Counted from the first letter of the stretch, positions 1,138 to 36,472 are shown. The stretch is DNA of 64,000 nt from Polyangium mundeleinium (GCF_028369105.1 NZ_JAQNDO010000001.1:2035711-2099710), one strand, 5' to 3'. Translations and numbers: made by a program. Notes: a model not told the origin generated them from the letters alone.

Positions 1138-2127
1138 ATGGATGGGCTCTCGTTGATTCTGGTCGCCGTGGTCTCCGCGCTCGCGCTCGTGATCGGGGTG
1201 CTCTTGCGGTCGCGGGGGGCGCTCGCGCGGGAGCTCGGGGCCGCGCGGGAGGAAGCGCGGGCGCTGTCGAAGGCCGCCGCCGAGGCGAAGAAGGCGTTGC
1301 CGGAAGCGGAAGCGGCGGCGGAAGCGGAAGCGGAAGCGGCGGCGGAAGCGGAAGCGGAAGCGGCGGAGGCGGCGGCGGCGGCGGAAGCGGCGGCGGCGGC
1401 GGAAGCACGAGCGGACAGGTTCGAGCGCGAGCTTCAGGAGGCTCGCGCGAGTGCCGAGAAGGCGTCTGACGAGTTACGGGAGGCTCGCGCGAGCGCCGCG
1501 AAGGCGTCTGACGAGTTACGGGAGGCTCGCGCGAGCGCCGCGAAGGCGTCTGAGGAGGTCCGGGAGGCTCGCGCGAGCGCCGCGAAGGCGTCTGAGGAGG
1601 TCCGGGAGGCTCGCGCGAGCGCCGCGAAGGCGTCTGGCGAGGTCCGGGAGGCTCGCGCGAGTGCCGAGAAGGCGTCTGGCGAGTTACGGGAGGCGCAGAA
1701 GAGGTGCGAAGAGCTTGAACGGCAGCTCGCGGAGGCCCGCGACCGGACCGACGGCCGGGCGGGGGACCTCTCCGCGGCGAGTCGCCGCATTGAGGAGCTC
1801 GGCCGCGCGCTCCGGCAAGCCGAGCAGGACGCCGAGACCCTCGCGACGCAGAAGGACGCGTTCGCCGCGGAGGTGCGCGCGCTGCGGGACGAGCTGGAGC
1901 GGCGGAAGAAGGCGGCGGAGCAGGCGGCCGCGGCGGCAGCGGCGGCCGAGGGGAAGCCGCTGTCCGCGGCGCCGTCGCGAAGGCCGGGGAAGCAGGCGCC
2001 ACCGCCGGAGCCGGTGACGGCGTTCTTTTGTTTGATCTGCGGGGAAGGGAGCGCGGGGACGAAGCCGCATCGGTGCCTCGTGGAAGAGGCGGAGCTGAAG
2101 AAGAAGGCGGCGGCGGGGAAGCGGTAG
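1138..2127 (+). CDS. membrane-anchored coiled-coil protein with 6 x 14-aa tandem repeats and a C-terminal CxxC...HxC zinc-ribbon-like motif
   Basis: N-terminal TM helix (LSLILVAVVSALALVIGVLL), Ala/Glu-rich coiled coil, (EARASAxKASxExR)x6, C-terminal FFCLICGEGSAGTKPHRC. GC3-rich codons. Confidence 0.65.
   Translation: MDGLSLILVAVVSALALVIGVLLRSRGALARELGAAREEARALSKAAAEAKKALPEAEAAAEAEAEAAAEAEAEAAEAAAAAEAAAAAEARADRFERELQEARASAEKASDELREARASAAKASDELREARASAAKASEEVREARASAAKASEEVREARASAAKASGEVREARASAEKASGELREAQKRCEELERQLAEARDRTDGRAGDLSAASRRIEELGRALRQAEQDAETLATQKDAFAAEVRALRDELERRKKAAEQAAAAAAAAEGKPLSAAPSRRPGKQAPPPEPVTAFFCLICGEGSAGTKPHRCLVEEAELKKKAAAGKR
1438..1689 (+). repeat. 42-bp in-frame tandem repeat x6 inside the coiled-coil gene
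   Basis: gaggctcgcgcgagYgccgMgaaggcgtctgRMgagKtMcgg repeated head-to-tail; encodes EARASA(E/A)KAS(D/E/G)E(L/V)R. Confidence 0.85.
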
Positions 2128-2147
2128 GTGGGGCGGGGGCGGGAGGG

Positions 2148-2174
2148 GCGCGGCCCGCAGGACGAGCCTGCGGG
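2148..2174. terminator. GC hairpin between convergent genes (ggcccgcagg-acgagc-cctgcgggc)
   Basis: 8-9 bp perfect stem between the 1138..2127(+) stop and the 2186(-) stop; a near-identical hairpin lies at 5962..5990 downstream of the paralogous giant gene. Confidence 0.5.
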
Positions 2175-2185
2175 CTGCGAGGGGG

Positions 2186-4672
2186 TTACTGGAAGCTCGC
2201 CGCGCCGATGGCCTGGACGTTCGCGCTGATGCCGCCGACGGCGGCCGGCGTGGTCCAGGTGCTGCCGCTCAGGCGCGCGTGCTTGAGGGTGCCGCTTTCG
2301 CTGAAGAGCAGCTCCGCGTTCTGGCTGCCGATGCCCGGGACCACGACGGGGGGCGCGGAGACCGTGTAGTTGGCGTTCGCGACCTTCGCCGCCGCTGTGT
2401 TCCAGCCGTTCGTCCCGTTGTAGATGACGGAGTAGAGCCAGCTACTGTCGCTGGTGTTCCGGTAGACGAGGACCGCACCGTTGTTCGCGAGCGGCGCGAG
2501 TGCCGGCCGGAGGTTCGTGGTCGACTTGTCGCCGCCCGCGCCATAGCGGACGGTGAGAGGCGTCGACCAGACCCCGCCCGCGTACCGGGACCAGACGATG
2601 ATGTTGCTATACACGAACGTCATCAAGAGATCGCCGCCGCTGAGTCGGATGATGTTCGGCTGGATCGCCGTGTCTGCTGTGACCCCGCTGGTGATCGCGG
2701 CCGTCGCCCAGGAGCCGTTCGTTCGGAACTGGAAGAACACCTTGGAGGAGTCTTGTTCCGGGAACACCAGCACCGCATCACCCGTGGCGCTGCGGAGGAG
2801 CCACTCGAGGTCGTGGACCGTCGCGTCCGTCGGCGCCCCGGTCAACTGGTAGGGCGTGAGCCACTTCGACGACGACGGCGAACCGATGTGCCGGATCGTG
2901 TGGTACTTGCCCATGCCAGGGCCCGGGTGGCGGAATGCGACTTCCGCCACGGGACCGAACGCGCTGATCACGGGGTTCCCGCTCGCCTTGGGGCTCTCCG
3001 GGACATACTCGATCTCGGTCCAGGTACCGATGGTGCCGTTCCATCGGGTGAACAACAGCTCGTCGGTGCCGTAGCCGTAGCGGACGACGCCGATGGCGTG
3101 GCGTGTGGTCGTGATGGCGAGGGACGGCGTACCCACCATGACGTTGATCCCGAACGCGAACGATCCGATCGTCCAGCTCGACCCGTTGTACACAGCGCTC
3201 TGCATGCTGTACGGCGGCGAGGCCGTCCCGGATGTGACGAGCGCGAGGAGGGTCGGGCAAACCTGGCAACTCGCGCCCCCGCAATCGAGGCCCGTCTCCG
3301 TGCCGTCCTTCAAGCCGTTCTTGCACGTCGAAGACACGCAGAGGCCGCGGTCGCAGGTGTTGCTCACGCAATCGCCGTTGACCGCGCACGCCTTACCATT
3401 GCTGCAATCCGTTGCGCAGGTGCCGCCGCAGTCGACGTCGGTCTCGTCGCCGTTCATGACGCCGTCGTCGCAGGTGGCCGCCACGCAGACGCCGCCCGAG
3501 CACGCGCCCGATGGGCAGTCGTCGCCGTTGTTGCAGGTCTTCGTGAACGCGCACTTCGTGGGACAACTGCCGCCGCAATCGACGTCCCCCTCGATGCTGT
3601 TCTTCACGCCGTCGCCGCAGGTGGCCGCCTGGCACGTCCCGCCTGTGCAGACCTTCGAGACACAGTCGTCGCCGCCACCGCAGCTCTGGGCCACGCACTT
3701 ATTGCCCGAGCAGGTGCTCGTGCCGCATTCGGCGACGCTCGTGCAGTAGATGCCCGCATCGACGCACTTCACCGGGCAGTGGTGGCCGCAGTCGACGTCG
3801 CTCTCGTCGCCGTTCTTGATGCCGTCGTCGGGGCAGCAGTAGGGCCCGTTGTCGATGAGTCCGTCACAATCTTCGTCGAGCAAGGTGCAGGGCTGCTCGC
3901 GCCCCGCCGCCTGGTTCTGGTTGCAGGCGACCACGCCGCCCTCGCAAGCGGTGGTGCCGGCCGCGCAGACGCCGAGCAACCCGGTGGCGCAAGCCATGCC
4001 GCCGCCCGGGTTGCCGTCGTCCACGCTGCCGTTGCAGTCGTTGTCGAGCCCGTCGCACACCTCGGACGACGGTATCACCGTATCCGGGCATTCAACGCTC
4101 CCGCTCGAACAATCCGTGAGCCCCTGGGCGCACTCCCCTTGCTTCCCCGGCACGACGCACGGCTGCCCGTCGCACGGGGCCGACTGGCAGACCTCGTCCA
4201 GGCAATACCCCTGTGTGCAATCCCCGTCGACCACGCACGCATCGCCAGGCTCGCACTTCGGGCACTTCGCGCCGCCGCAATCGACGTCCGCCTCGTCGCC
4301 GTTCGCGACCCCGTCGCTGCACGTCGGCGCGCCGCACGCACCGTTCTGGCAAATCTTGTCCTTGCAATCGCCGGAGAGCTTGCACGACTTGCCGGTGCCG
4401 CACGGCGGACAGTCGCCGCCGCCGCAATCCACGTCCGTCTCCGTGCCATTGTACTTGTTGTCGATGGCGCACGTGGCGCCTTCGCCGCCGCCGCCGCCCA
4501 TCCCTCCGGCGCCGCCCATCCCTCCGGCTCCCCCCATTCCACCAGCGCCGCCCGCCCCGCCCGTCCCCTCGATAAGCTCGTACGGTTCGTCGTACCCGAG
4601 GACCTGCGCGCAAGCCTGCAAGGTGAACAGCCCGGCCGCCAAGCAGAGCCCGAAACCTCGACGCGATCGCAT
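2186..4672 (-). CDS. giant secreted lipoprotein (828 aa): Gly-rich linker, multiple Cys-rich repeats incl. Cu-binding_MopE-type repeats (CDGxDNDC(D/N)GxxDE), C-terminal beta-rich domain with repeated G-S-x-W-x-T motifs
   Basis: Signal/lipobox MRSRRGFGLCLAAGLFTLQAC. Repeats such as EVCDGLDNDCNGSVDDGNPGGGMAC. C-terminal 370 aa are paralogous to the C-terminus of the 5998..11949 protein. The start overlaps the upstream stop (TGATG). Confidence 0.8.
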   Translation of the reverse strand: MRSRRGFGLCLAAGLFTLQACAQVLGYDEPYELIEGTGGAGGAGGMGGAGGMGGAGGMGGGGGEGATCAIDNKYNGTETDVDCGGGDCPPCGTGKSCKLSGDCKDKICQNGACGAPTCSDGVANGDEADVDCGGAKCPKCEPGDACVVDGDCTQGYCLDEVCQSAPCDGQPCVVPGKQGECAQGLTDCSSGSVECPDTVIPSSEVCDGLDNDCNGSVDDGNPGGGMACATGLLGVCAAGTTACEGGVVACNQNQAAGREQPCTLLDEDCDGLIDNGPYCCPDDGIKNGDESDVDCGHHCPVKCVDAGIYCTSVAECGTSTCSGNKCVAQSCGGGDDCVSKVCTGGTCQAATCGDGVKNSIEGDVDCGGSCPTKCAFTKTCNNGDDCPSGACSGGVCVAATCDDGVMNGDETDVDCGGTCATDCSNGKACAVNGDCVSNTCDRGLCVSSTCKNGLKDGTETGLDCGGASCQVCPTLLALVTSGTASPPYSMQSAVYNGSSWTIGSFAFGINVMVGTPSLAITTTRHAIGVVRYGYGTDELLFTRWNGTIGTWTEIEYVPESPKASGNPVISAFGPVAEVAFRHPGPGMGKYHTIRHIGSPSSSKWLTPYQLTGAPTDATVHDLEWLLRSATGDAVLVFPEQDSSKVFFQFRTNGSWATAAITSGVTADTAIQPNIIRLSGGDLLMTFVYSNIIVWSRYAGGVWSTPLTVRYGAGGDKSTTNLRPALAPLANNGAVLVYRNTSDSSWLYSVIYNGTNGWNTAAAKVANANYTVSAPPVVVPGIGSQNAELLFSESGTLKHARLSGSTWTTPAAVGGISANVQAIGAASFQ
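3300..4500 (-). repeat. Cys-rich repeat array (MopE-like plus DCGG..C..C..G..C-type) inside the 2186..4672 gene (approximate bounds)
   Basis: Periodic Cys spacing seen in translation; the DNA is periodic at roughly 140 bp. Confidence 0.6.
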
Positions 4673-5715
4673 CAGAACGTTCCCTTCAATCCCAGCGAGA
4701 CCGCACTCGGCCCGACGTCGAAAGTCGCTGCCCGCACGCCCGTCTTGACCGGGCCTTTGGTTTCACCACCCCCGCCCATGACCACCATCACGATACCCGC
4801 CGCCACGCCGACGACGCCCACCCCGAGCCCCACCGTCGCCACGGTGGAGAGGGTCCGCCCCTGCTCCACGGCATCCATCCCGGCCTGGTTGCACTGCGTC
4901 CCCTTGCAATTCGCGTCGACGTCCGCCTTCTTCGCCACGGCGAGCCCGCCTGTCACGCCATACGTCACGAGCCCCGCGACCCCGATGCCCAGCGCGACGA
5001 ACCCCCCGGTCCGCAGCCCGCTGCCTCGGCTCGCCGGCGCGACGGGCGTTTCGGGCTCCTTGGGCTTCTCGGCGACGTTCGGCACGAGCGGCGGCGGCGG
5101 CTTCGGATTCGCCGCGGGCTCGGGCGCCGGCAACACGAGCTCCAGCGTCTTCTTTTCGCCGCGCGCGACGCTCACCTTCGTCTCGACGGCCTTTGCGCCC
5201 GGGACCTCCAGCACCACGACGTGCTCGCCGGGATCGATCGGCAATGAAATGCCGAGCATGGCGGCGCCCATCGGAGTGCCGTCGCGAAGGACCCGCGTCC
5301 CGGCGGGGGCGGCCGGAGGCAGGACGATCAAAAGCTCGGGGACCTCCTTCGAGAGCGTCTCCTTTTGCGCCGATGCTTTTTGCGCACGATCCGCTTGCTT
5401 CTTCTGTTGCTCGGGCGTCATGCGGTCGTACGCCCGCAAGTAATCCTCGTAATGGGCGACGGCCGTCGCGATGCGACCCGCGTTCATCTCGCAATAGGCG
5501 AGCGTGTACAGCGTCCCGGGGCGTGGATCGAGCCGCTGGCTCTCCGCGATGTGGGGACAGGCGACCGCGAATTGCTGCGCCTCCATCTCGGCGACGCCCT
5601 TCCGGAAGAGCGCTTCGGCCGCGGCCACGTCCTGCGCCGGTGCCTCGCGCGCCGACGCGAGCAGGCCGAGGCACACCATCCCACCCAGGATCGATCGTGC
5701 GTTCGTCATGTGCAT
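4672..5715 (-). CDS. PEGA-domain membrane protein (signal peptide, TPR-like helix pair, PEGA domain, C-terminal 2-TM/CxxxxC/aromatic-end anchor module)
   Basis: Start chosen at MHMTNARSILGGMVCLGLLASAREAPAQ (ATG 5715 or 5709, a GGTGAGA RBS-like sequence upstream); the upstream part of the listed ORF is Arg-rich junk. PEGA-like block LLIVLPPAAPAGTRVLRDGTPMGAAMLGISLPIDPGEHVVVLEVPGAKAVETKVSVARGEKKTLELVL. Ends ...GLKGTF. The stop overlaps the downstream ATG by 1 nt. Confidence 0.75.
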   Translation of the reverse strand: MHMTNARSILGGMVCLGLLASAREAPAQDVAAAEALFRKGVAEMEAQQFAVACPHIAESQRLDPRPGTLYTLAYCEMNAGRIATAVAHYEDYLRAYDRMTPEQQKKQADRAQKASAQKETLSKEVPELLIVLPPAAPAGTRVLRDGTPMGAAMLGISLPIDPGEHVVVLEVPGAKAVETKVSVARGEKKTLELVLPAPEPAANPKPPPPLVPNVAEKPKEPETPVAPASRGSGLRTGGFVALGIGVAGLVTYGVTGGLAVAKKADVDANCKGTQCNQAGMDAVEQGRTLSTVATVGLGVGVVGVAAGIVMVVMGGGGETKGPVKTGVRAATFDVGPSAVSLGLKGTF

Positions 5716-5961
5716 TCTTCTCACCGTCATCAGTCCCGCATGGAGTCGCTCGGTGCTGATGTTCCGACAGGCTTCGCCGACGGTGGGCCACGTGGCCGCG
5801 GTCGCGTGCCCCGAGAATCGGGCGTGTATGCCCACCGGCGCCCTACTCACTTTTCGAGGTTTGGGCCAAGAAACTGGCGACAGGGCCTCGTGGAGGAGGC
5901 CGAGCGGGCGATGGGGGCGGCGGTGACGGGAAGCGAGAGGGGCGCGAGGGCGGGAGAGGGC

Positions 5962-5990
5962 GGGCCCGCAGGACGAACCTGCGGGCCCGG
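5962..5990 (-). terminator. GC hairpin gggcccgcagg-acgaac-cctgcgggccc just 3' of the 5998 stop
   Basis: 11-bp perfect stem, duplicated from the 2148..2174 hairpin along with the gene 3' ends. Confidence 0.5.
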
Positions 5991-5997
5991 AGGCGGG

Positions 5998-11949
<5,952 letters not shown>

Positions 11950-12344
11950 CGAACCTCGACCTCCACTGCCCGAGCCCCATCGTCCGCGCCACGCCCGACG
12001 CGGTGCTCGCCACGCTCCGAAGGATCCAAGACGCCAGCGTGAAAGCTGCACCGTGCACGCGCCGGGGAGCTCACCGATGGGACCAGGAAGCAAGGAAAGG
12101 GAGCCACTGTGACGCATGCTACGGCACACTTGCGCACAGGTACAAGCAGATCCACACGATCGCGGCGCGGGGGATACGCTGTGCAATTTGTTACGATCCT
12201 GGAATGGGCCCCGGTGCGCGCCGGGGCAGGAGGGCGCGGGCCCAGGCTTTGCGTGTATCCGCGCGGGGGCCCGAGAGGCCGTGTTCCGAGACAACCTCGC
12301 GGGCTCGCGGCGGATAACGTTGCGGCGCGCGGTCGGTCCACGAT

Positions 12345-14282
12345 ATGTGGATGAGAAACATCATGAACACGAGATGGACAGGGCTCTTCACGTCGATCCT
12401 CACGGGTGTGCTCGGCGCCGGCTCGATGGGCTGCGAGCTCGTGGCAAACGTGGATCGAAGCCAGATCGACCAGAATCCACCCGGCTCGGAGGTCGTCTGC
12501 GGGGACGGGACCCTCGCCACGAGCGAAGCCTGCGACGATGGCAACACGGCGGCCGGTGACGGCTGTTCGGGCACGTGCGTGGTCGAGGACGGGTTCGCGT
12601 GCACCGGGACGCCGAGCGCGTGCGCCGACGTGGACGAGTGCGCGGCGGGTACGGACGACTGCGATGAAAACGCGACCTGCACGAACGCGGAGGGCTCGTT
12701 CACCTGCGCGTGCAAGGCGGGGTTCACGGGCGACGGCGCGACGTGCACGAACGTGGACGAGTGCACGGATGGCACGGCCAACTGCGGCGCAAACGCGACG
12801 TGCGCGGATACGCCCGGCTCGTTCACGTGCACCTGCGACACCGGGTACACCGGCGACGGCGTGACGTGTACGAACGCCGACGAGTGTGCCGATGGCACGA
12901 ACAACTGTGACGCGAACGCGACGTGCACGGATACGGTCGGCTCGTTCGTCTGCGCGTGCAACGCGGGATTCTCGGGCGACGGCGTGACGTGCACGAACGA
13001 TGACGAGTGCATGCTCGGCATCGACAACTGCGACGCAAACGCGACGTGCATGGATACGCCCGGCTCGTTCGCCTGCGTCTGCAACGTGGGCTACATGGGC
13101 GACGGGCTTTCGTGCACGAACGCCGACGAGTGCATGCTCGGGATGGATAACTGCGACGCGAACGCGACGTGCACGGACACGGTCGGCTCGTTCGTCTGCG
13201 CGTGCAACGCGGGGTTCTCGGGCGACGGCGTGACGTGCACGAACGATGACGAGTGCATGCTCGGCATCGACAACTGCGGCGCGAACGCGACGTGCATGGA
13301 CACGCCCGGCTCGTTCGCCTGCGCCTGCAACACGGGATATGCGGGCGACGGCGTGACGTGCACGAACGTCGACGAGTGCATGCTCGGGACGGACAACTGC
13401 AGCGCGGACGCGACGTGCACGGACACGGTCGGCTCGTTCGTCTGCGCGTGCAACGCGGGGTTCTCGGGCGACGGCGTGACGTGCACGAACGACGACGAGT
13501 GCGCGCTCGGCATCGACGACTGCAGCGCGAACGCGACGTGCACGGATACGCCCGGCTCGTTTACCTGCGCCTGCAACGCGGGGTATGAAGGCGACGGCGT
13601 GACCTGCACGCTGCTGCCGGCGAGCTGCAAGGCGATCAAAGCCGCGACGCCCGCCGCGACCGACGGCGACTATGTCATCGATCCGGACGGCACCGGCCCC
13701 ACGCCTTCGTTTACCGTGCGTTGCGACATGACCACGGCGGGCGGCGGCTTCACGCTCGTCTTCAACGACGGCCCCTCGTTCGACCCGAGCCTCGTCGGCG
13801 CGGGCGCGGAGACCGGGTACACGACGAACTACGTGAACAGCGCGTACGCGACGGTGCCGATCACGGCCGACGTGCTGCTCGACGCCTCCGACACGGCGAT
13901 CAGCGCGAACGATCAGGAAGTGCGGACCCTCATCGCGGGGCTCCCGGCGGCGACGCTCGGTCAAACGATGCGTGAGCTCTTCGCCGCGGGCGGGCCGTTT
14001 TATTTCGACGCGGAGGACAACGCCAACGTGACGAACACGTTCGCCGGCGGCGTCACCTGCGGGACGCTCGCGAAGTGGGACGACTACCGGAGCATTCTCT
14101 GCGGCACGTCGGTGCTCGTGGCGCGTGATCCGTCGGGCCCGTCCTGCCCCGGAACGACGTTCGCGTTTGGCATCGATACGAGTTACAGCACCGCGCTCGA
14201 CAACTGCGCCGGCTGGCCGCAAGCGCCGAACGAGAGCGGGACGAACTACTTCCCGGACAACGTCCGCGTCTGGGTGCGCTGA
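12345..14282 (+). CDS. secreted protein: Myxococcus Cys-rich repeat (TIGR02232-like) + 8 calcium-binding EGF-like domains + C-terminal fibrinogen-related domain
   Basis: Signal/lipobox ...GVLGAGSMGC; CGDGTLATSEACDDGNTAAGDGCSGTC; 8 x (D.DEC..G.DNC..NA.C.DT.GSF.C.C..GF.GDG.TC); FTVRCDMTTAGGGFTLVF matches the fibrinogen C-terminal signature (vyCDM...GGGWTV). Confidence 0.85.
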   Translation: MWMRNIMNTRWTGLFTSILTGVLGAGSMGCELVANVDRSQIDQNPPGSEVVCGDGTLATSEACDDGNTAAGDGCSGTCVVEDGFACTGTPSACADVDECAAGTDDCDENATCTNAEGSFTCACKAGFTGDGATCTNVDECTDGTANCGANATCADTPGSFTCTCDTGYTGDGVTCTNADECADGTNNCDANATCTDTVGSFVCACNAGFSGDGVTCTNDDECMLGIDNCDANATCMDTPGSFACVCNVGYMGDGLSCTNADECMLGMDNCDANATCTDTVGSFVCACNAGFSGDGVTCTNDDECMLGIDNCGANATCMDTPGSFACACNTGYAGDGVTCTNVDECMLGTDNCSADATCTDTVGSFVCACNAGFSGDGVTCTNDDECALGIDDCSANATCTDTPGSFTCACNAGYEGDGVTCTLLPASCKAIKAATPAATDGDYVIDPDGTGPTPSFTVRCDMTTAGGGFTLVFNDGPSFDPSLVGAGAETGYTTNYVNSAYATVPITADVLLDASDTAISANDQEVRTLIAGLPAATLGQTMRELFAAGGPFYFDAEDNANVTNTFAGGVTCGTLAKWDDYRSILCGTSVLVARDPSGPSCPGTTFAFGIDTSYSTALDNCAGWPQAPNESGTNYFPDNVRVWVR

Positions 14283-14287
14283 GCGAC

Positions 14288-14330
14288 GCCCGCCCCCCTC
14301 CACGCTCGCCGCGCGGGGGAGGGGGGCGTT
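14288..14330. terminator. bidirectional hairpin between convergent genes (cgcccccctcc ... ggaggggggcg, 11-bp perfect stem, then ttt)
   Basis: Seen directly in the 59-bp gap between the 14282(+) and 14341(-) stops. Confidence 0.6.
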
Positions 14331-14340
14331 TCACGCGGTG

Positions 14341-15378
14341 CTAGAAGCTCCAATCGATTTCGACGCCGCCCCTGCCCGGGCTCGCCGCGGCGTTCACGCG
14401 CAACCGAGGCTCCGTCGAACCGAATTTCGAGGGCGGGGGCTCCGTGAGATACAGAATGACGCCGGCCGCCAGGGCGCCGAGGCCGACAGGCAGAGTGACA
14501 CTGCTGACGATCCCGGTGATTGCCGCGGTGTCCTTGGCGCCCTCTCCGGTCGGATTGCAGATCCTGCCGCTGCAATTCTTTTCGATGGGCTCCTTCTGCG
14601 CCCAGGTGACGACCCCCGTCACGATACCGCCGAGGATGCCGACGGCGCCCACGCCGCCGAGCGTGTAGGCCATGACGCGGCGCCCCGAGATCCCCGGGTC
14701 GAGCGCCGGCATCATCGAAGGCACGGGTTGCAGGGGTTTCGCCTTTTTGGTGGGATCCCCGGACTCGGTCGCCGGCGGCATGGTCACGTTGACCACCTGG
14801 TTCTCCCCTTCCTTCACGCTGAACTTCGTGAACGAGGAGGGACGGCCCGGGATCTCGGTCGTGAGCACGTGCTCGCCGGGGTCGATCGGGAGGGGGATGC
14901 CAATGGCCAGCGGGATGAGCGGGCCTCCGTCGAGCGGCTTGCGGAGCACACGCGTCGTCCCCGGGGCGTCACGCGGGACGCGCAAAATGACCTTGGGGAG
15001 CCGCTTTTCGAGCTCCTGCCGGCGCGCCGATGCGGTCTCCTCGTTGTCGCGCTCCGCCTTTTGCTCGAGGTCCGAGAGCTGCCCGAACGCGTTGAGGTAA
15101 TCGTCGTAGTGCACGGCCGCCGTCGCGATGCGGCCCCACTTGTCGTAACACGTGGCGAGCCAGAAGAGCGTGGATGCGCGCGGATCGTCGCGGTAGGCCG
15201 CCTTGAACGCGGGGCAGGCCGTCACGAAGTTCCCGGCGTCCATCTCCGCACGCGCCGTCTGCACCGCGACCTGCGACGCTCCCGCTTGCGGCGCGCCTGC
15301 CGCGGGCTCGTCCGCCAGGGCACGCCCGGTCATCGTGCAGAGAGCGACGCCTGCGAGAATCAGCGATACGAGACGCAT
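14341..15378 (-). CDS. PEGA-domain membrane protein, paralog of 4672..5715 (same architecture and C-terminal anchor module)
   Basis: Signal MRLVSLILAGVALCTMTGRALA, ACPAFKAAY...TLFWLATCY, PEGA block, TM - NCSGRIC - TM - ...EIDWSF end. Confidence 0.75.
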   Translation of the reverse strand: MRLVSLILAGVALCTMTGRALADEPAAGAPQAGASQVAVQTARAEMDAGNFVTACPAFKAAYRDDPRASTLFWLATCYDKWGRIATAAVHYDDYLNAFGQLSDLEQKAERDNEETASARRQELEKRLPKVILRVPRDAPGTTRVLRKPLDGGPLIPLAIGIPLPIDPGEHVLTTEIPGRPSSFTKFSVKEGENQVVNVTMPPATESGDPTKKAKPLQPVPSMMPALDPGISGRRVMAYTLGGVGAVGILGGIVTGVVTWAQKEPIEKNCSGRICNPTGEGAKDTAAITGIVSSVTLPVGLGALAAGVILYLTEPPPSKFGSTEPRLRVNAAASPGRGGVEIDWSF

Positions 15379-15653: not shown

Positions 15654-16418
15654 TTGAGGGGTCCCATGCGGCGGCCCTGGAACCGTCTCCTCTCCACGGC
15701 GCTCGCGGGCGCGCTCGTTGCCCTGACCACGCCGGCCGCGGCGCGCCCGGAGGACCCTGCGCCGTCCGCGCCGCTGCCCGTGCCCGCGCGCGAGGACACG
15801 ACAATCATCATTGAAGACAAACCCTCCGCGCCGCCGCGCGCGGCCCTGCGGCCGACGCCGACCGCGCCTGCGCCCGCGCCGAAAGAGCCGCCGCCGGCGC
15901 GCGCGCCCACCGTGCCGTATAGCCTCGGCCTCCTCGGCCTCGGCGCGGCGTTCGTCGTGACGGGCGGCGTCCTCATGGGGGTCGCGGCCACGCACGTCGA
16001 GCGCTGCGGGGTCGCCGGTTGTTATGACGTGCTCGATCCGAAGCTCGCGTTCATCGGCCAGCTCGTGCTCGCCGGCGGCATCGGCATGAGCCTCACCGCC
16101 GGCACGGCGGCGGCCGTGGGGCTCGTGGCCGACCGAAGACCCGGCCCCCGCCGGAGCGACCATTTCACGGAGATGGGCATCTTCGCGGTGGCCCTCGGCG
16201 CGGGCCTCGCCGGCGTGAGCCTCGCATCCGCCATGGCCCATGACGAGCATCTCGACGGCTTACCGGCCCCGTTCGTCCCCCGGGCCCTCGCCTTCGCGCT
16301 CGCGAGCACCGCCGCGGGGCTCGGCTTCTGGATTTACGGCGGGCGTGACGCGCCGAGCTCCACCGCCGCATCCTTGCGCGTGGGGCCGACCTCGGCGCAT
16401 TTCACGGTACATTACTGA
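15654..16418 (+). CDS. hypothetical Pro-rich membrane protein
   Basis: Signal (RLLSTALAGALVALTTPAAA), Pro-rich region, at least 3 hydrophobic helices; ends 6 nt before the next gene. The competing minus-strand ORFs are Arg-rich shadows. Confidence 0.5.
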   Translation: MRGPMRRPWNRLLSTALAGALVALTTPAAARPEDPAPSAPLPVPAREDTTIIIEDKPSAPPRAALRPTPTAPAPAPKEPPPARAPTVPYSLGLLGLGAAFVVTGGVLMGVAATHVERCGVAGCYDVLDPKLAFIGQLVLAGGIGMSLTAGTAAAVGLVADRRPGPRRSDHFTEMGIFAVALGAGLAGVSLASAMAHDEHLDGLPAPFVPRALAFALASTAAGLGFWIYGGRDAPSSTAASLRVGPTSAHFTVHY

Positions 16419-16424
16419 CCCGCC

Positions 16425-18353
16425 ATGGCCCCCCGCTCCTCCGCCGCGCCCCTCCTCGCTGCGTCCCTGTCCGCGCTCGTGCTCGTCGCTTGCCGCGGCG
16501 AAGGAGGCAGCGTGCGCGTCGACTTCCTGAACCCCGAAGTCGAGCTCTCCACGGGCGTGGACGGCCGCGTTCACCTCGACGGCGCGTTCGACCTCACGGC
16601 CACCCTCTCCACGTGGAGCGACGAGACCGAGGCCGAGATCTGGCTCGACAAACTCGACGTGACCACGCCGGACGCCCCAGTCTTTCCGGTCGTCGGCGAG
16701 ATCCGCGTGCCCGAGGGCGCGTCTTTGTTCCCGCTCGCGGTCGAGGCCTACAACGACAGCACGGTCCGCGTCCCTTTCACGGGCACGAGCCTGGAGACGC
16801 CGGGCGACGAGCTCGCATGGCTCTGCTCGATCGGCCGGCCCATGGAGCTCCAGGGCGCCGTGTACGACGCCGAGACCGGCTCCTTCCAGTCGTTTTATGA
16901 CGCGGCGTCGCAGCTCCAGGGACCGAGGCACGAGATCACGTTTTCCCGCAAGGACGCCGCCTCCCGGCCGCTCCCGCCGCGCTTCGCGTCGAGCCTCCCG
17001 CAGGGCTTGGGCGGCCTCACCGAGCTCGACGTCGAGCACGCGTGGGGCGGGTTCGTCCTCGGCGGCTCGCTCCTCGCGAACCTGAACCTCGGGGATCGGC
17101 AGATCTCCGCAGACGGCGCGGGCGACGTCGTGCTCGTCCGTTTCGACGCGCAGGGAAACGTCCTGTGGGATCACAAGTTCGGCAACGTTGGCATGGAAGG
17201 GATCTCCTCCCTTTCGCAGCGCGACGGGGCGGATCTCTTCGTGGGAGGGCATTACGACTACACGATCGATCTCGGGGCCGGCGTGCTCCAGAACCCGACC
17301 AGCGGATACGGCTATTTCGTCGCGCGCATGTCGGACACAGGCTCGACCGTGTGGAGCACCGGATTCATCGAGGACGTGGCTCCTCCGCGCACCCTTTGCA
17401 CCTTGCCCTACCCGCGTATCGCAGCCCGCCCGGACGGCGGCGTGAGCTTCGTGAAGAGCCTCCACGGATGGATCTCGTTCGCCGGCGGCCCGATCGAGGC
17501 GACGCCGCCCGTGGACGACTGCGGCCCGGACCTGCTCGTCGCCGCGTACGACGCCGCGGGCGCGCTGCTTTACGCGAACCGCTTCGGCGATGCGTACGAG
17601 CAGCAAGCGATCGACGTCGCGGTCGACGACGAGGGCACCACCTGGCTCGTGGGCGTCTCCGAGGGCGTGCTCGATTTCGGCCATGGCCTGCCGCCGATCG
17701 TGGGGCCTGGGATCGTCACGCCGCCGGAGGCAAGGCTCTTCGTCGCGGCGTTTGATCCCCAAGGCACGCCGATCCTCGCGCGGGACCTCGGGCACGTCCT
17801 GCTTCGCCCGAGCCACCAGGTGCGGCTCGCAGTGCGGCCCGGGGGCGGGGTCGTGGTGGCGGGGGCTTTTACCGGCGTGATCGACGTCGGAATGGAGCCG
17901 CTCGTGAGCACGGGCCCGGGCGACGATGGGTTCGTCGTGGCGCTCGACGCGACCGGCAGTCCGATATGGGGGCAGCACTTCGATCACCCGGCGAGCGCGG
18001 TCCTGGAGGCGTTCGCGCTCGCCGACGTGGCCGTCGCCGAGGACGGGCGCGTCGTGCTCGCGGGCCGCGCGACGTCGGGGTTTCGCATCGGCGGGCAGCC
18101 GCTCCCGGGCGGCACCTCGACGTTCGGCGGGGGCCTCGGGAGCGCGCTGTTCGCGTTGGTCCTCGACCCCGCGGGCGCGCCGCTCGGCCATCGGATCCTC
18201 TCGTGCAACGCGGGGCGGTTCGCTGCCCTCGACGTGGGGGCGGGCGAGGTGTCGCTCGTGAGTGCGGTCCTCGGGTATTCCGAGGGGAAGGACGGGCTCC
18301 TTCCTCGCAACGACGGCGCTTTGTGGATGGGCCGGCTCGCGCTGGATCCTTGA
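16425..18353 (+). CDS. lipoprotein with SBBP-type beta-propeller repeats
   Basis: Lipobox LVLVAC; repeated blades (GDVVLVRFDAQGNVLW, LLYANRFGDAYEQQAIDVAVDDEGTTWLVG, LFVAAFDPQGTPI, GFVVALDATGSPIWGQHF). Confidence 0.8.
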   Translation: MAPRSSAAPLLAASLSALVLVACRGEGGSVRVDFLNPEVELSTGVDGRVHLDGAFDLTATLSTWSDETEAEIWLDKLDVTTPDAPVFPVVGEIRVPEGASLFPLAVEAYNDSTVRVPFTGTSLETPGDELAWLCSIGRPMELQGAVYDAETGSFQSFYDAASQLQGPRHEITFSRKDAASRPLPPRFASSLPQGLGGLTELDVEHAWGGFVLGGSLLANLNLGDRQISADGAGDVVLVRFDAQGNVLWDHKFGNVGMEGISSLSQRDGADLFVGGHYDYTIDLGAGVLQNPTSGYGYFVARMSDTGSTVWSTGFIEDVAPPRTLCTLPYPRIAARPDGGVSFVKSLHGWISFAGGPIEATPPVDDCGPDLLVAAYDAAGALLYANRFGDAYEQQAIDVAVDDEGTTWLVGVSEGVLDFGHGLPPIVGPGIVTPPEARLFVAAFDPQGTPILARDLGHVLLRPSHQVRLAVRPGGGVVVAGAFTGVIDVGMEPLVSTGPGDDGFVVALDATGSPIWGQHFDHPASAVLEAFALADVAVAEDGRVVLAGRATSGFRIGGQPLPGGTSTFGGGLGSALFALVLDPAGAPLGHRILSCNAGRFAALDVGAGEVSLVSAVLGYSEGKDGLLPRNDGALWMGRLALDP

Positions 18354-18414: not shown

Positions 18415-19425
18415 TTACTTCTTGGCGGGAGCGGGCGCGGGCGCGGGAGCAGGTGCGGCGGCAGGCGCAGCGGCGGGCGCGGCGGGCTCGGCGCCGTGGC
18501 CGGCGTGCGGATCGCTCGCGGCGGCCTCGGGATCGACCGAGATGCCCTTGCGGGTCGTCTTCGTCAGCGGGCCTTCGAGGGGCTTGCCGTCCTTGTCGAC
18601 GAGCTCGACCGTCACCTCGTAGTCGCCCTTCGGCAGGTTCTTCGCGACCTTCGGGGCCCACGTGGTGAACTCGCCCGTGAGCGGCGTGGCGAGGCCCGCG
18701 CCGGCGATCGTGTATTTGACCTTCTCGCCTTTGTCGAGCGCCGTGCCGAAGAGATAGAAATCGAGGAGCAGCTCCTTGCCCATCGCGCCCTTGTTTTCGC
18801 CCTTGGGGCGGCTGTAGACGACGTGGGGCTTCTTCGGGTCGAACGCGCTCTTGCCCTTCTTGCCGACCCAGAACGTCACGAGCTGCTGCGCGCCCTTGCC
18901 CTTGACCGACTCGTGCGTCGCGCGGCTCGCGAACGCGACGAGCGTGTGCTCGCCCTCCGTGAGCTCGGTGCCCGCGGGCAGCAGCTCGGAGACCTTCACG
19001 GGCTTTTTCGTGTCGTAGATCGCCTTGTACGGGAGGTCGTCGAGGATCAGGTGGACGTGCGGCCCCTTCTCGACCGTGGCCCAGTCCTTCACGTCGAGCT
19101 TGATCTCGAAGTCCTTCGCCTTGGCCAGGTCGCCGATCGACGCGTCGTTCTTCGGCGCCGTGATCTTCACGCTCGGCAGCGGCTTCGGGTCCTCGCTCGG
19201 CTTCATGTCCTCGACGACGGGCGGCGGCGGCGCGGGCTTCTTCGCCTCGGTCGTCGTCGTCGTCGTCGTCGTCGTGGCCGCGGGCTCGGGCGTCGGCACG
19301 GCCGTCGTCTCGGCCGGCTTCGCCTCTTCCTGCGACGGTTCCTTCACCTCGGTCTCCGCGCCGCCGCACGCGAAAGCGCTCACGACGAGGGAGAGCATCC
19401 CGACAAACGATACCGTGGTTTTCAT
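18415..19425 (-). CDS. Lys/Pro/Thr-rich lipoprotein
   Basis: MKTTVSFVGMLSLVVSAFAC lipobox, poly-Thr linker, lower-GC Lys-rich body, C-terminal PAAPAAAPAPAPAPAPAKK. Confidence 0.8.
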   Translation of the reverse strand: MKTTVSFVGMLSLVVSAFACGGAETEVKEPSQEEAKPAETTAVPTPEPAATTTTTTTTTEAKKPAPPPPVVEDMKPSEDPKPLPSVKITAPKNDASIGDLAKAKDFEIKLDVKDWATVEKGPHVHLILDDLPYKAIYDTKKPVKVSELLPAGTELTEGEHTLVAFASRATHESVKGKGAQQLVTFWVGKKGKSAFDPKKPHVVYSRPKGENKGAMGKELLLDFYLFGTALDKGEKVKYTIAGAGLATPLTGEFTTWAPKVAKNLPKGDYEVTVELVDKDGKPLEGPLTKTTRKGISVDPEAAASDPHAGHGAEPAAPAAAPAAAPAPAPAPAPAKK

Positions 19426-29341: not shown

Positions 29342-31312
29342 ATGGTGATGTTCGCGCCCACCGAGGCCTTGCGCCCCAACTTGCAGCTCGACGTCGCGTC
29401 CGGGGACACGCTCGACGTGCGCAAGTTCCAGGTCACGGAGCGCATGTCGGATCTCTTCGAGGTCCGCCTCGTGGCGCTCTCGCCGAACCCGGAGATCGAC
29501 TTTGACGCGGTGCTCGGCCGGGAAGCGACGTTCACGCTCTCCCGCGACCAGCTCCTCGCCACCGCCTACCGCACGTGGGGCGGGATCTGCCATCACATCC
29601 AGCAGATCGAGTCGGAGGAGGCGGGGCTCTCCACGTACGAGCTCGTGATCGTGCCGAAGCTCTGGTTCCTCACGCAGCGGCGCAACCACCGCATGTTCCA
29701 GCAGCTCTCGGACCTCGACGTCGTGCTCCAGCTCCTCCGCGAGTGGGGCATCGAGCCCGTGCAGAAGGTCGACGCGGCCACGTACAAGAAACGCAAATAT
29801 CGCGTGCAGTACGGCGAGAGTGATTACGCGTTCCTCTGCCGGCTGCTCGAAGACGCGGGCATCACGTTTTACTTCGACCAGCAAGGCGAGACCACCGTGC
29901 TCGTCCTTCACGACGCGCCGCAGAACAATCCACCCCGCGAGCCCTCCGTCCGGTTCGTCGACAAACCGATGGTGGACAAGGATCTCGAGTTCGTCACCGA
30001 GGTGCGCGTCGGACAGCGCACGCGGCCCGGCAAGTACACGATCTTCGACCACGACTACCGGCGGCCGGCGAACTACAAGCTGATGGGCACGCACGCCGAG
30101 GGCGAGGCCTTCGAGCAGCAGATGGAGCGCTTCCATTACGTGCCCGGCGCGTCCCTCTTCCGCAGCGACGGGCGCGAGCCCACGCCGAGCGCCGACGACA
30201 AGGGCGCGGCGCGGCACGACGAGGGCGAGGCCAAGCGAATCGCGAAGATCCGCCTGGAGGCGAAGCGCGCCGAGGCCCGCAAGGCCACGTTCCGCACGAA
30301 CCTCGTCGAGCTCCGGCCCGGGACCGTGATGCGCGTCGTCGATCATCCGCGGCGCGAGCTCGCGAGCCGGCTGCTCGTGGTGCATTCGACGTACGAGGGC
30401 ACGTCGTATGGCGAGTGGGTCCACCGGCTCGAAACGCGCAGCGCCGAGATCCCCTACCGCCCGCCGCTCGTCACGCCGAAGCCGAAGGTGAGCGGCGTGG
30501 AGAGCGCGACGGTCGTCGGCCCCGCGGGCGAAGAGATCCATACCGACGAGTTCGGCCGCGTGCGGGTCCATTTCCACTGGGATCGCGAGAGCCAGATGAA
30601 CCAGGACAGCTCGTGCTGGATTCACGTGAGCCAATCCTGGGGCGGCGCGGGATACGGCGGCGTGCAGCTCCCGCGCGTTGGCCAGGAGGTGATCGTCGAT
30701 TTCCTCGGCGGCGATCCGGATCGGCCCATCATCGTGGGGCGCGTCTTCACGAACCTGCAAAAGGTGCCGTACCCGCTGCCGGCGAACAAGACGCAGAGCG
30801 GGCTCCGCTCGGCCTCGTCGCCGGCGACGGGCGGCTACAACGAGCTGATGTTCGAGGACGCCGCGGGCCGCGAGCTCATGCGGCTCCAGGCCGAGAAAGA
30901 CTTCACGGGCCTCGTGAAGCACGACCTCCGGATGAACATCCAGAACGACCGCACGCACAACGTCGGCAACAACGACACGGAGACCGTGGTCGGCGAGCAG
31001 TCGGTGAAGGTCGCGAAGAAACGCACCGTGCGGGTCAAGCTCGATCAGCAGCACCAGGTCGGCGAGAACATCCTCGTGCAGTCGGTCAACGGCGTATCGA
31101 CGCACCTGTCGAAGCAGGCCATCCGGCTCTTCAGCGAGATGATCATCCTCTCCACCTCGCCGGACTCGTTCATCGTGATCTCGCAGAGCGGGATCACGAT
31201 CCAATCGCCGATCGTGCAGATCAACCCGGGCATGCTCCGGGTCCCCAACCCGCCGCAGCCCGCGGCGATCGAAGACGCGGCGACCGTCACGGGATACATC
31301 GGAGCACCATGA
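29342..31312 (+). CDS. vgrG: type VI secretion system spike protein VgrG (TssI)
   Basis: gp27-like N-terminus and gp5 OB region; VIVDFLGGDPDRPIIVGRVFTN is the classic VgrG motif. Stop overlaps the next ATG (ATGA). Confidence 0.9.
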   Translation: MVMFAPTEALRPNLQLDVASGDTLDVRKFQVTERMSDLFEVRLVALSPNPEIDFDAVLGREATFTLSRDQLLATAYRTWGGICHHIQQIESEEAGLSTYELVIVPKLWFLTQRRNHRMFQQLSDLDVVLQLLREWGIEPVQKVDAATYKKRKYRVQYGESDYAFLCRLLEDAGITFYFDQQGETTVLVLHDAPQNNPPREPSVRFVDKPMVDKDLEFVTEVRVGQRTRPGKYTIFDHDYRRPANYKLMGTHAEGEAFEQQMERFHYVPGASLFRSDGREPTPSADDKGAARHDEGEAKRIAKIRLEAKRAEARKATFRTNLVELRPGTVMRVVDHPRRELASRLLVVHSTYEGTSYGEWVHRLETRSAEIPYRPPLVTPKPKVSGVESATVVGPAGEEIHTDEFGRVRVHFHWDRESQMNQDSSCWIHVSQSWGGAGYGGVQLPRVGQEVIVDFLGGDPDRPIIVGRVFTNLQKVPYPLPANKTQSGLRSASSPATGGYNELMFEDAAGRELMRLQAEKDFTGLVKHDLRMNIQNDRTHNVGNNDTETVVGEQSVKVAKKRTVRVKLDQQHQVGENILVQSVNGVSTHLSKQAIRLFSEMIILSTSPDSFIVISQSGITIQSPIVQINPGMLRVPNPPQPAAIEDAATVTGYIGAP

Positions 31313-34213: not shown

Positions 34214-36472
34214 TTAGCGCCCGCCTCGACCCACGGGCTGCGATTGCACCACGCGGCCCAGCGCCAGCACGCGCAGCGTGATCGACTCGTTGTCTGCCGG
34301 ATCCTGCTGCGGGTGCGGCTCGGCAATGGCTCGCACACGTAGCCGCGGGAAGAGCGGCAGCTTCTCCGACAGCACCTCCGGCATGTACGTCGGCAGCGGC
34401 GAACCGCTGCCCAGAGAGAGCAATCCGCCGATGTGCTCCCCGCCGAAGAGCTTGCGCTTCAGGTAATGACGCTCCTCGATCAGGATTCGCTGCGCCGTCG
34501 TTTCAAGGTAATCCGACGCGAGCGACCGATTGGCCTGGGCAAACGCCTGCCGCACGCGCGACAAGGCCCCCTCGAGGAGCGGCACCGCCGCGCTCCGCGG
34601 CCCCCGGCAGAGCTCCTCCGCCGCGTCGAGCGCCTCCTTCAGCCGCTTGTCCGCCGCGGCGAGCTGCGAGGCCACGGCGATCGTCGTTTTCAGCGTCTCC
34701 AGCGGGTCGCAGGTCATCGCGAGCTCGCCGTTCACGATCACCAGCGGCTGCTCGAAGATCCCATCCTCGTCGATGGCCTCCTCCATCACGCGGGCCATGC
34801 CGATCGCGTCGAGCGGCGGCACGCGGCCGAGCGCGCGCCGGATGTCGCGGCGATCCGTCACGGCCTGCGTCGGCTCCTCCGGCTCCTCGCCCGTGAGCCA
34901 TTCCGTCGGGCGCTGCGGATCCCGCAGGTAGGACGCCCACGCCGATTGCTGTCGCACCCGCTGCGGCGCGTGTTCGTCGAACCAGATCAAATCGACGTAT
35001 TCGGCGGCCGGCGCGCGGCGTCGCACGGGCACGCTCGTCGAGATCACGGGCGCCGCCGGCTCGGGGCGCGGTGCGGCGACGGCCGCCGCATCCGAGGCCG
35101 CCGCGAGCCCGCCGAGCGTCGCCTGGGCATCATGCACGGGCGGCGGCGCGACAGGCGCGGGCGGCGGGACGGCGACGGGCGCGGGCGGCGCGACGGGCGC
35201 GGGCGGAGGGGCATACAGCGGCGGCGCAGCCGGGGGCGCGGGGGTTGGCGCGCTGATCGACGAGGCCGGCGCACTCAGGAAGGGGAGGCGCCCGCCGGGC
35301 GCGGGGGGGCGGGCCGCCGCCTCGGGGGTGGCGCTCGGGGTCGACTGGAAAGGCAAGACGCGCCCGGACGCGGCCTGCACGAGGCTCGGATCGGCGATCG
35401 TCTGGGCCGGTGGCGGCCTTGGCTTCGTGGACTTGATCTCCGCCTCCTCGGTCGGCGGGATCGATTTCTGCGGTCGTGATGGCGCTTCGGGCGCGGCCGC
35501 GGCCTTCGAGGGCGGCGCGCTGTCGAGCCATATCTTCACCTCGCCCGGCTCGTCGCGCAGGCGCATGGGGATCTGCGCGCGGAACGTCAGCGTGCAGAGC
35601 AGCCGATCGGTGTCGATCCACAACGTATCGGCGCGCATCGGCTGCGCGCCTTGCCCGCGGCCCTCGACCAGGAACACCGGCGCGAGGCCCGGCAGGCTCG
35701 TGACGAGCCGCGGCACGCTGGGGTGCAGGTTTTCGAGGAGGATCCGCGCGTTCGCGGGGAGGAAATCGGTCTGCTGATCCGGCGGCGCTGCATTGAAGTA
35801 GCGGAAATCGAAGCCGTCGGGGATGTGCGATTCGTACCAGCGATCGGGCAGGCTGCCGCGGGCGAGCGCGCCGAGCCGCTCGCGCCGCGCGGGCCAGGAA
35901 GGCGCGAGAGGGCCAAACCCGACGGGCTCGACGAAATCGGCCGGGGCGCGGACCGTGACGCCGGGCCACGTGATGTTCGGCATGCGCACGCGCCCCATCG
36001 CGTCGGCCCATCCCGCGCGCACGCCGACCGGATTCGCCGTGTCCGGCCCGCCGCCGGCCCGCTCGTAGACGAGCGGCATTCGCGTGAAACGTTGCCCCTC
36101 GGCGAGAGAGCCGTCGGGCTGGAACCAGCGATCCTGGGTGACCTCGATCGATTTGTCGACCTCGCCCACGAGGAGGCGCGCGACGACCGAACGCGCGGGG
36201 ACCTGCTGCGGCGCGTGCGCGGAGCCCACGAGGAGCACGTCCGCGCGCGGCTTGAAGGGGACGACGTCGCTCGGGACGCGCAGGCTGCGGTTCGTGTCAT
36301 CGTCCCAGTGCTCGTCGGCGGCGGCGATGTCTTCCGGGTCCTCCGCGAGCGGGGACGTGCCCGGCGCGAGGGAAAACGTCGCCTTGCAGACGACCGTGAA
36401 CACCCACCCCTGCGCTCGATTCGGCCAGATCAAGGACGCACAGGGGAACGGGGCATTCGAGACGATTTGCAT
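34214..36472 (-). CDS. DUF2169-family protein (T6SS effector-associated adaptor family) with a long Pro/Ala-rich C-terminal extension
   Basis: The N-terminus MQIVSNAPFPCASLIWPNRAQGWVFTVVCKATFSL resembles the DUF2169 signature as I recall it (M.i.N.tPf......d.dG....vvvvKaTf.l; uncertain); convergent with the PAAR gene (2-nt gap between stops). Confidence 0.6.
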   Translation of the reverse strand: MQIVSNAPFPCASLIWPNRAQGWVFTVVCKATFSLAPGTSPLAEDPEDIAAADEHWDDDTNRSLRVPSDVVPFKPRADVLLVGSAHAPQQVPARSVVARLLVGEVDKSIEVTQDRWFQPDGSLAEGQRFTRMPLVYERAGGGPDTANPVGVRAGWADAMGRVRMPNITWPGVTVRAPADFVEPVGFGPLAPSWPARRERLGALARGSLPDRWYESHIPDGFDFRYFNAAPPDQQTDFLPANARILLENLHPSVPRLVTSLPGLAPVFLVEGRGQGAQPMRADTLWIDTDRLLCTLTFRAQIPMRLRDEPGEVKIWLDSAPPSKAAAAPEAPSRPQKSIPPTEEAEIKSTKPRPPPAQTIADPSLVQAASGRVLPFQSTPSATPEAAARPPAPGGRLPFLSAPASSISAPTPAPPAAPPLYAPPPAPVAPPAPVAVPPPAPVAPPPVHDAQATLGGLAAASDAAAVAAPRPEPAAPVISTSVPVRRRAPAAEYVDLIWFDEHAPQRVRQQSAWASYLRDPQRPTEWLTGEEPEEPTQAVTDRRDIRRALGRVPPLDAIGMARVMEEAIDEDGIFEQPLVIVNGELAMTCDPLETLKTTIAVASQLAAADKRLKEALDAAEELCRGPRSAAVPLLEGALSRVRQAFAQANRSLASDYLETTAQRILIEERHYLKRKLFGGEHIGGLLSLGSGSPLPTYMPEVLSEKLPLFPRLRVRAIAEPHPQQDPADNESITLRVLALGRVVQSQPVGRGGR

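Follow-up and report, generated by a model that had tools for sequence, protein, structure and literature searches.

Gene organization of the locus

We analyzed a 64,000-nucleotide (nt) stretch of the Polyangium mundeleinium genome (NZ_JAQNDO010000001.1:2035711-2099710; hereafter the window), which has about 70% GC, and concentrated on an interval near its start that encodes two Cys-rich putative lipoproteins (G1 and G2), two small putative envelope proteins (PEGA1 and PEGA2), and a middle gene (MID) on the opposite strand. The main feature of the locus is the C-terminal domain shared by G1 and G2, an unannotated domain that is predicted to be a seven-bladed propeller of lectin-like fold. An original prediction, made from the sequence alone, had placed five genes in this interval, and third-position GC content (GC3) picked out the same five open reading frames (ORFs) (Table 1).

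The stop codon of PEGA1 and the start codon of G1 overlap as TGATG, as had been proposed and as a direct reading of the sequence confirmed; this junction suggests that the two genes are translationally coupled. The original prediction described two operons, but only PEGA1-G1 is operon-like here. Because MID lies between them on the opposite strand, PEGA2 and G2 do not form an operon in this genome. The intergenic region between G2 and MID presumably holds the promoters of both genes, and a promoter scan found no sigma-70 consensus in it. Among relatives, Polyangium spumosum (GCA_009649845.1) showed about 80% amino acid (aa) identity together with synteny, and Polyangium sp. 6x1 was 82-87% identical to the window at the nt level. 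ORFs on the plus strand within G2 (7007-11113; 432 and 885 aa; GC3 >0.9; for example 8456-11113) were rejected as by-products of GC-rich repeats rather than genes, because the minus-strand frame has domain matches and orthologues.

Table 1. Features of the locus, with positions counted from the first nucleotide of the window
Feature	Position	Strand	Description
Gene X, convergent neighbor	1138..2127	+	329 aa, coiled-coil repeats, GC3 0.86
Duplicated segment, copy A	2075..4071	-	Last 53 nt of X, intergenic hairpin, 3' 1.9 kb of G1
G1 3' hairpin	2149..2179	-	Core CCCGCAGG / CCTGCGGG; free energy (dG) -23.9 kcal/mol, z -4.15
G1	2186..4672	-	828-aa putative lipoprotein; no Pfam or NCBIfam match
G1 propeller	2189..3253	-	About 355 aa, predicted seven-bladed beta-propeller
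G1 DCGG block	3254..3835	-	Four 49-aa repeats, from repeat parsing
PEGA1	4672..5715	-	347 aa
Duplicated segment, copy B	5885..7883	-	X 3'-end remnant (5885 to ~5940), hairpin, 3' 1.9 kb of G2
G2 3' hairpin	5961..5989	-	dG -28.9 kcal/mol, z -3.49
G2	5998..11949	-	1983-aa putative lipoprotein, VASC lipobox
G2 propeller	6001..7062	-	Hidden Markov model (HMM) score 336; 74% identical to G1 propeller
G2 DCGG block	7063..7647	-	Four repeats, from repeat parsing; 147-nt period by Tandem Repeats Finder (TRF)
G2 MopE (PF11617) array	7648..11727	-	55-aa (165-nt) period
Intergenic region, G2/MID (divergent)	11950..12344	.	GC lower than surroundings
MID	12345..14282	+	645 aa, secreted
PEGA2	14341..15378	-	345 aa, PEGA1 paralogue

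The shared C-terminal propeller and the Cys-rich stalks

The original prediction had given G1 and G2 a common C-terminal domain of about 370 aa. A shared domain is indeed present, but the real shared stretch is longer, 658 aa at 69% identity, and corresponds to the coding part of the duplication described below. Neither propeller matched a Pfam or NCBIfam model, with the Pfam search taken to E ≤ 10. A word-indexed search with the propeller returned a single homologue. Searched exhaustively with a profile, 1.84 billion cluster representatives yielded 310 homologues at E ≤ 1e-3, of which 94 reached E ≤ 1e-10. When ten propeller relatives were checked against Pfam, no model covered the domain. 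The propeller family appears to be undescribed so far and has no Pfam model.

The propeller sequence splits into seven Trp-bearing blade motifs, and seven Trp residues are invariant across 20 diverse members. An AlphaFold2 model built on a 20-sequence alignment reached a predicted local distance difference test score (pLDDT) of 88 and a predicted template modeling (TM) score of 0.91, superseding a run on a 3-sequence alignment in which the pLDDT was only 66. When this model was searched with Foldseek, the top 22 structures were all PLL-family lectins (E 5e-13 to 1e-10, TM 0.70-0.78), followed by a tier of sialidases, fungal fucose lectins, and glycosidases at E ≥ 2e-8. The seven-bladed beta-propeller fold that characterizes the PLL family (PLL, PLL2-5, and PHL of Photorhabdus; BP39L and CV39L) is present in the predicted model. 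The likeness is confined to this fold: there is no detectable sequence homology, structural alignments give 13-16% identity, and the domain has a blade motif of its own (phi-x2-R/Y-x2-G-x-W-S/T-x-P). In addition, PLL-family lectins are soluble 35-40 kDa oligomers of about 350 aa, whereas here the propeller forms the C terminus of 828-aa and 1983-aa lipoproteins. The PLL family recognizes fucose and O-methylated sugars through Trp-lined pockets between the blades (PMC6943638). One conserved Trp per blade is compatible with sugar pockets of this type, and the modeled fold points to a glycan as the most likely ligand class. A stand-alone propeller relative of 356 aa (positions 5001-6071 of a 222-kb metagenome contig from JGI) is encoded divergently from a LamB porin, an alpha-amylase, and a MalK-type ABC ATPase; because of these neighbors, its position gives a weak hint of a carbohydrate-related role.

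The same searches bear on a different reading, in which the stalk would carry a catalytic propeller of the sialidase/GH145/PL type, acting as a glycosidase or polysaccharide lyase to degrade prey or plant polysaccharides. The second-tier folds included L-Rha-alpha-1,4-GlcA lyase, glycoside hydrolase BACINT_00347, PL25 ulvan lyase, sialidases, and KDNases, and one propeller relative (P0004) had a weak match to BNR_2 (E 0.007). Four polar residues (R181, E318, H329, and R331) were invariant in all 20 diverse members, and the amylase and LamB genes beside the stand-alone relative would also suit an enzyme. However, the model has seven blades as against six in sialidases, HMMs of enzyme families gave no match, and the raised ratio of nonsynonymous to synonymous divergence (dN/dS) of the head (see below) would be unusual in a catalytic domain. 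We consider an enzymatic head unlikely.

Upstream of the propeller, both proteins are rich in Cys. From the N terminus, G2 (9.3% Cys) consists of a signal peptide with a VASC lipobox, a stalk of MopE repeats, four DCGG repeats, and the propeller. G1 has a signal peptide with an LQAC box, a Gly-rich linker, two DCGG repeats, one or two MopE units, four further DCGG repeats, of which the final half repeat abuts the propeller, and the propeller itself. Lipoboxes were read from the sequence against the pattern [LVI][ASTVI][GAS]C, which LVASC of G2 fits. G2 scored 340.5 bits against PF11617 in 22 stretches (Pfam gathering threshold 27 bits); 22 cores were also found by regular expression, and TRF reported 13.2 copies of a 165-nt period. 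The original label of giant MopE-repeat lipoproteins is apt for G2, with its 22 PF11617 repeats, but not for the 828-aa G1, which holds one canonical MopE core. G1 aligns to the G2 repeats, and it gave no Pfam match even at E ≤ 10 and no NCBIfam match. NCBI annotates G2 and its orthologues, including the one in P. spumosum, as 'MopE-related protein'; this name fits the stalk of G2 only and leaves the DCGG repeat, the propeller, and the partner gene unannotated.

The DCGG repeat is 49 aa long with eight Cys residues and begins with the head C-x-DG-x2-NG-x-E-x-D-x-DCGG; there are six copies in G1 and four in G2. It matched no Pfam model and no PDB sequence, and none of its 68 homologues in the databases had a Pfam match to the repeat or an informative name. 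Those homologues with a named source came from Polyangiaceae, Kofleriaceae, and Bradymonadia. The repeat appears to be undescribed so far.

The MopE repeat is a Cys/Asp motif of the CDGxDNDCDGxxDE kind, which we take to resemble the calcium-binding thrombospondin type 3 repeats, and by this analogy MopE repeats probably bind calcium. The Pfam name 'Cu-binding_MopE', together with the strong G2 match to that model, would point instead to metal (copper) handling. We weighed a copper-binding role and rejected it as highly improbable, given the calcium-type appearance of the repeat, the single MopE unit of G1, the replacement of MopE by DCGG repeats in orthologous giants, and a neighborhood in which copper-homeostasis genes were not found.

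Pairing, duplication, and divergence

PEGA1 has a signal peptide, two tetratricopeptide repeat (TPR) motifs, a PEGA-like beta-sandwich, a Pro-rich linker, and two hydrophobic segments flanking a conserved C-x4-C loop. As had been proposed, PEGA1 and PEGA2 are paralogues (37% identity, E 1e-56). The PEGA-domain label that both had received holds at the family level only: PEGA1 scored 20.6 bits against PF08308 (cut-off 20.8), and PEGA2 had no PEGA match in Pfam. Among 49 homologues, 8 matched PEGA (best E 1e-7), 24 matched TPR_2, and 3 matched CarboxypepD_reg; the family profile matched consensus TPR structures at E 3e-42, and an LPIDPGEH motif in the beta-sandwich is invariant in the family. 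The PEGA and TPR matches, the profile result, and the invariant motif justify the label 'TPR + PEGA-like' for the family, whose orthologues NCBI names merely "tetratricopeptide repeat protein".

To place this gene in other genomes, the alignment of PEGA proteins was searched against GTDB species genomes, giving 57 loci, of which 52 had enough downstream sequence. A locus was counted as paired if the PEGA gene was followed on the same strand by a gene whose product has at least 7% Cys. Nearly all loci that could be classified to order or below belonged to Polyangiaceae or related Myxococcota. In 13 of the 52, a Cys-rich giant came directly after the TPR/PEGA gene, usually abutting or overlapping it. 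These paired loci (L002, L015, L017, L041, L004, L011, L024, L050, and L012 among them) cluster among the closest PEGA relatives and come from Polyangium, Sorangium, Chondromyces, and Minicystis. Eight or nine of the 13 carry the propeller; the Minicystis giant does not. The pairing itself thus extends across four genera with its order conserved, even though the two operons first ascribed to this genome do not hold. It appears to be undescribed so far: literature searches combining 'PEGA domain' with myxobacteria gave nothing, and PF11617 came up in just two papers.

In other Polyangium genomes, the gene that immediately precedes the giant is orthologous to PEGA2. In P. spumosum, the PEGA2 orthologue (79%) sits immediately upstream of the G2 orthologue, and the order PEGA2 orthologue, giant, convergent X recurs in P. 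spumosum, P. fumosum, sp. 15x6, and sp. y55x31. The stalk between these flanks varies widely: it has 22 MopE units in this genome and 29 DCGG repeats in P. fumosum, and in 15x6 and y55x31 it is made of other Cys-rich sequence. All of them keep the propeller head. A pair of the PEGA1-G1 type occurs in P. fumosum at a separate locus in unrelated context, and the order of MID, G2, and PEGA1 is common to this window and Polyangium sp. 6x1.

Such adjacency might have no functional meaning, if independent envelope proteins were simply linked by descent within one bacterial family. This would agree with the unrelated neighbors of more distant PEGA-family genes, with the monocistronic stand-alone propellers, with PEGA2 staying intact and under purifying selection although parted from G2 here, and with P. 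jinanense, where the giant is inverted relative to the PEGA gene. Nevertheless, four genera and both paralogous subfamilies (PEGA1-G1 and PEGA2-G2) preserve order, strand, and the abutting or overlapping junction, even where the chromosomal positions are unrelated, and the TGATG junction speaks for coupling. We regard a fortuitous linkage as rather improbable.

The gene that parts PEGA2 from G2 had been drawn as lying between two operons. The comparison of gene order changes this picture: MID was found in sp. 6x1 (81%), and the genomes of P. spumosum, P. fumosum, sp. 15x6, and sp. y55x31 lack it at this position, so that it is best read as an insertion, flanked by the pairs, in the lineage shared with sp. 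6x1. MID has an atypical signal/lipobox, GSMGC, as read from the sequence, and is composed of a DUF4215-like Cys repeat, eight calcium-binding EGF (cbEGF) domains, a GGGWT/intelectin-like motif (13623-13760), and a C terminus of 170 aa for which a word-indexed search returned no homologue. The eight cbEGF domains of the original prediction were confirmed (EGF_CA, PF07645, 199.7 bits; EGF_3, 296 bits; eight copies each). Their array (12633-13610, +) is built from a 246-nt super-repeat of two EGF domains (86% identity, 3.9 copies), indicating recent tandem amplification of EGF pairs. The DUF4215 match of the Cys repeat scored 25.8, below the threshold of 27. The proposed fibrinogen-like domain was not recovered with PF00147 at E ≤ 0.01, and is reduced to the short GGGWT motif of 46-50 aa: 46 aa matched NF040941 (GGGWT_bact) at 62 bits, and a 50-aa stretch over this motif also matched human intelectin-1 (E 3e-4). 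Over this motif MID resembles intelectins and GGGWT proteins, but it differs from them in lacking PF00147, in its orphan C terminus, and in its fusion to eight cbEGF domains.

A duplication of about 1.2 kb (2148..3300 versus 5962..7110) had been proposed for the 3' segments of G1 and G2. The blastn comparison of copies A and B confirmed nucleotide identity between them (80.9% over 2016 aligned nt) and enlarged the duplication to 2.0 kb. Homology extends 110 nt beyond both stop codons, and the last 17 codons of X persist downstream of G2 as a decayed remnant in which the LVEEAE codons are aligned. Because the hairpin and the X remnant beyond the stops are homologous as well, this is a segmental duplication of DNA and goes beyond conservation of coding sequence. 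The two GC-rich hairpins described originally as near-identical terminators are present, but they lack a U-tract and a terminator scan did not call them. Gene X itself, which has tandem 'AKASEELREARASA'-like coiled-coil repeats, a conserved C-terminal FFCLICGEGS..KPHRC motif, and no Pfam match, is also convergent to the G gene in P. spumosum (about 53-56% aa identity) and marks the ancestral downstream boundary of the cassette.

Synonymous divergence (dS) and dN/dS were estimated by the Nei-Gojobori method (NG86). Within this genome, the dS between the G1 and G2 propellers was 0.26, lower than the 0.39-0.41 between G2 and its orthologues, and the stalk part showed the opposite pattern, which suggests later gene conversion of the head. 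The PEGA proteins, being only 37% identical, point to old paralogous pairs. The duplication looks like the outcome of recombination or gene conversion between two such pairs rather than a simple recent duplication of an operon. The head and distal stalk had dN/dS values of 0.49-0.87, higher than the 0.18-0.39 of conserved neighboring genes, the 0.35 of the MopE array, and the 0.27-0.30 of the PEGA genes (PEGA2 0.30 versus P. spumosum), although all these values are rough and indicative only because the genes are strongly codon-biased (GC3 about 0.9). Gene X (0.49) was a fast-diverging exception among the neighbors. The head and distal stalk thus diverge faster than the conserved neighbors, and the locus is probably a fast-evolving one for cell-surface adhesion.

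Fast divergence of the heads would also fit polymorphic receptors for self, kin, or prey, with the giants analogous to TraA and the PEGA protein analogous to TraB as membrane partner. The variation of stalk repeat type and number among species between conserved flanks, and the duplication and gene conversion of the paralogues, are in line with this idea; so is TraA itself, which likewise joins a lectin-like recognition domain to a Cys-rich stalk, has a partner gene, and evolves fast (PMC6372800, PMC3325183). On the other hand, a dN/dS below 1 fits relaxed constraint as well. The PA14-like domain at the N terminus of TraA, its MYXO-CTERM anchor, and the OmpA domain of TraB all gave no Pfam or NCBIfam match in G1, G2, or the PEGA proteins, and the C terminus of the G proteins is the last strand of the propeller. 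A TraA-like receptor is improbable.

Two further genes adjoin PEGA2 on the plus strand (15654-16418 and 16425-18353; 254 and 642 aa; no Pfam match). They are kept beside the PEGA2 orthologue in four Polyangium genomes (59-90%) and were not detected near the P. spumosum orthologue. Next to them, 18415-19425 (-) encodes a 336-aa putative lipoprotein with a signal peptide ending in FACGG and no Pfam match. This protein shares 83% identity with the P. spumosum orthologue, and several Polyangium genomes have its gene upstream of the cassette.

Proposed function and relation to known systems

Our preferred reading, to which we give a probability of roughly 55%, is that the locus contains two copies of a two-gene cassette, conserved in Polyangiaceae, for a surface adhesin made of a lipid-anchored stalk, a propeller head that binds a glycan or another ligand, and a TPR/PEGA partner. 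The first gene would supply a small envelope protein with a signal peptide, two TPR motifs, a PEGA-type beta-sandwich, and two hydrophobic segments. The second, directly downstream and often overlapping, would supply a disulfide-rich lipoprotein ending in the propeller. Its stalk, built of MopE repeats (thrombospondin-type-3-like and probably calcium-binding), DCGG repeats, or both, would be stabilized by disulfides and probably by calcium. The lipoprotein may be displayed on the cell surface with the propeller as distal binding head, recognizing a glycan as PLL/PHL lectins do, and the TPR/PEGA protein may act as its envelope partner in anchoring, export, or assembly. A stalk of such length would be hard to fit in the periplasm, from which we infer a location at the surface.

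In our reading of its history, the old PEGA1-G1 pair was joined by recombination beside an ancestral PEGA2-G2-X locus, an event that duplicated 2.0 kb comprising DCGG repeats, propeller, and the 110-nt flank with the 3' end of X. The two heads were later partly homogenized by gene conversion, and a secreted cbEGF/intelectin-like gene was inserted between PEGA2 and G2 in the lineage that this genome shares with sp. 6x1.

Several observations weigh against this adhesin reading, in addition to the codon bias that blurs the rate estimates. The lipobox of G1, TLQAC, is atypical, with Q at -2. At E ≤ 10, a profile of 20 propeller members matched no lectin among all PDB sequences. Instead of contacting a ligand, the invariant Trp residues may serve a structural role as Asp-boxes do, and the asymmetric set of R181, E318, H329, and R331 could mark a single catalytic or binding site instead of the repeated pockets of PLL lectins. 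Finally, distant members of the PEGA family and stand-alone propellers are unpaired. As a hypothesis, the surface-adhesion reading of the locus, already put forward in the original prediction, is reasonable.

A bolder version, which is possible but doubtful, would make the cassette a two-component surface-display system of Polyangiaceae that has so far gone unrecognized: the dedicated partner would export or anchor a long calcium-stiffened stalk that carries a new family of lectin-type propellers, and recognition of prey, kin, or matrix glycans would be tuned as gene conversion and elevated dN/dS diversify the head.

The overall kind of locus is familiar: a bacterial surface adhesin of modular build, here from a myxobacterium and with eukaryote-like modules. 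Its closest analogues, CglD/CglB and TraA/TraB, are not homologous to these proteins. CglD of Myxococcus xanthus, like CglB an outer-membrane lipoprotein adhesin, is likewise a Cys-rich surface lipoprotein with eukaryote-like extracellular-matrix modules and a calcium-binding stalk of thrombospondin/COMP type (bioRxiv 10.1101/2023.10.19.562135). However, CglD has a VWA/MIDAS head and works with the Glt gliding machinery, whereas the G proteins lack a VWA domain, end in a propeller head, and are paired with a TPR/PEGA gene.

In myxobacteria, gliding, predation, kin recognition, and multicellular development all require surface adhesins, few of which have to our knowledge been characterized outside Myxococcus. 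For further tests, the locus supplies an unannotated propeller family with a predicted fold suggestive of glycan binding, the apparently undescribed 49-aa Cys repeat, and a conserved partner gene that might account for the display of very large lipoproteins. It also illustrates clearly how modular adhesin genes are reshaped by recombination and gene conversion. Its present value lies in annotation and in hypotheses about function.

Elsewhere in the window, 29342-31312 (+) encodes a VgrG-type spike protein (Phage_GPD, Gp5_trimer_C) and 34214-36472 (-) a DUF2169 protein; proteins of these two kinds are usually associated with type VI secretion. The G orthologue of P. spumosum is closely followed, on its downstream side, by genes for a VgrG and for a Pesticin-domain protein of 1674 aa. 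A further eukaryote-like extracellular protein of 447 aa (38942-40285, -) combines a peptidoglycan-binding domain with a matrixin (M10) metalloprotease and a sub-threshold B_lectin match. Lastly, 51890-57502 (-) encodes an 1870-aa fusion of Ser/Thr kinase, AAA/STAND NTPase, GAF, PAS, and histidine kinase domains.

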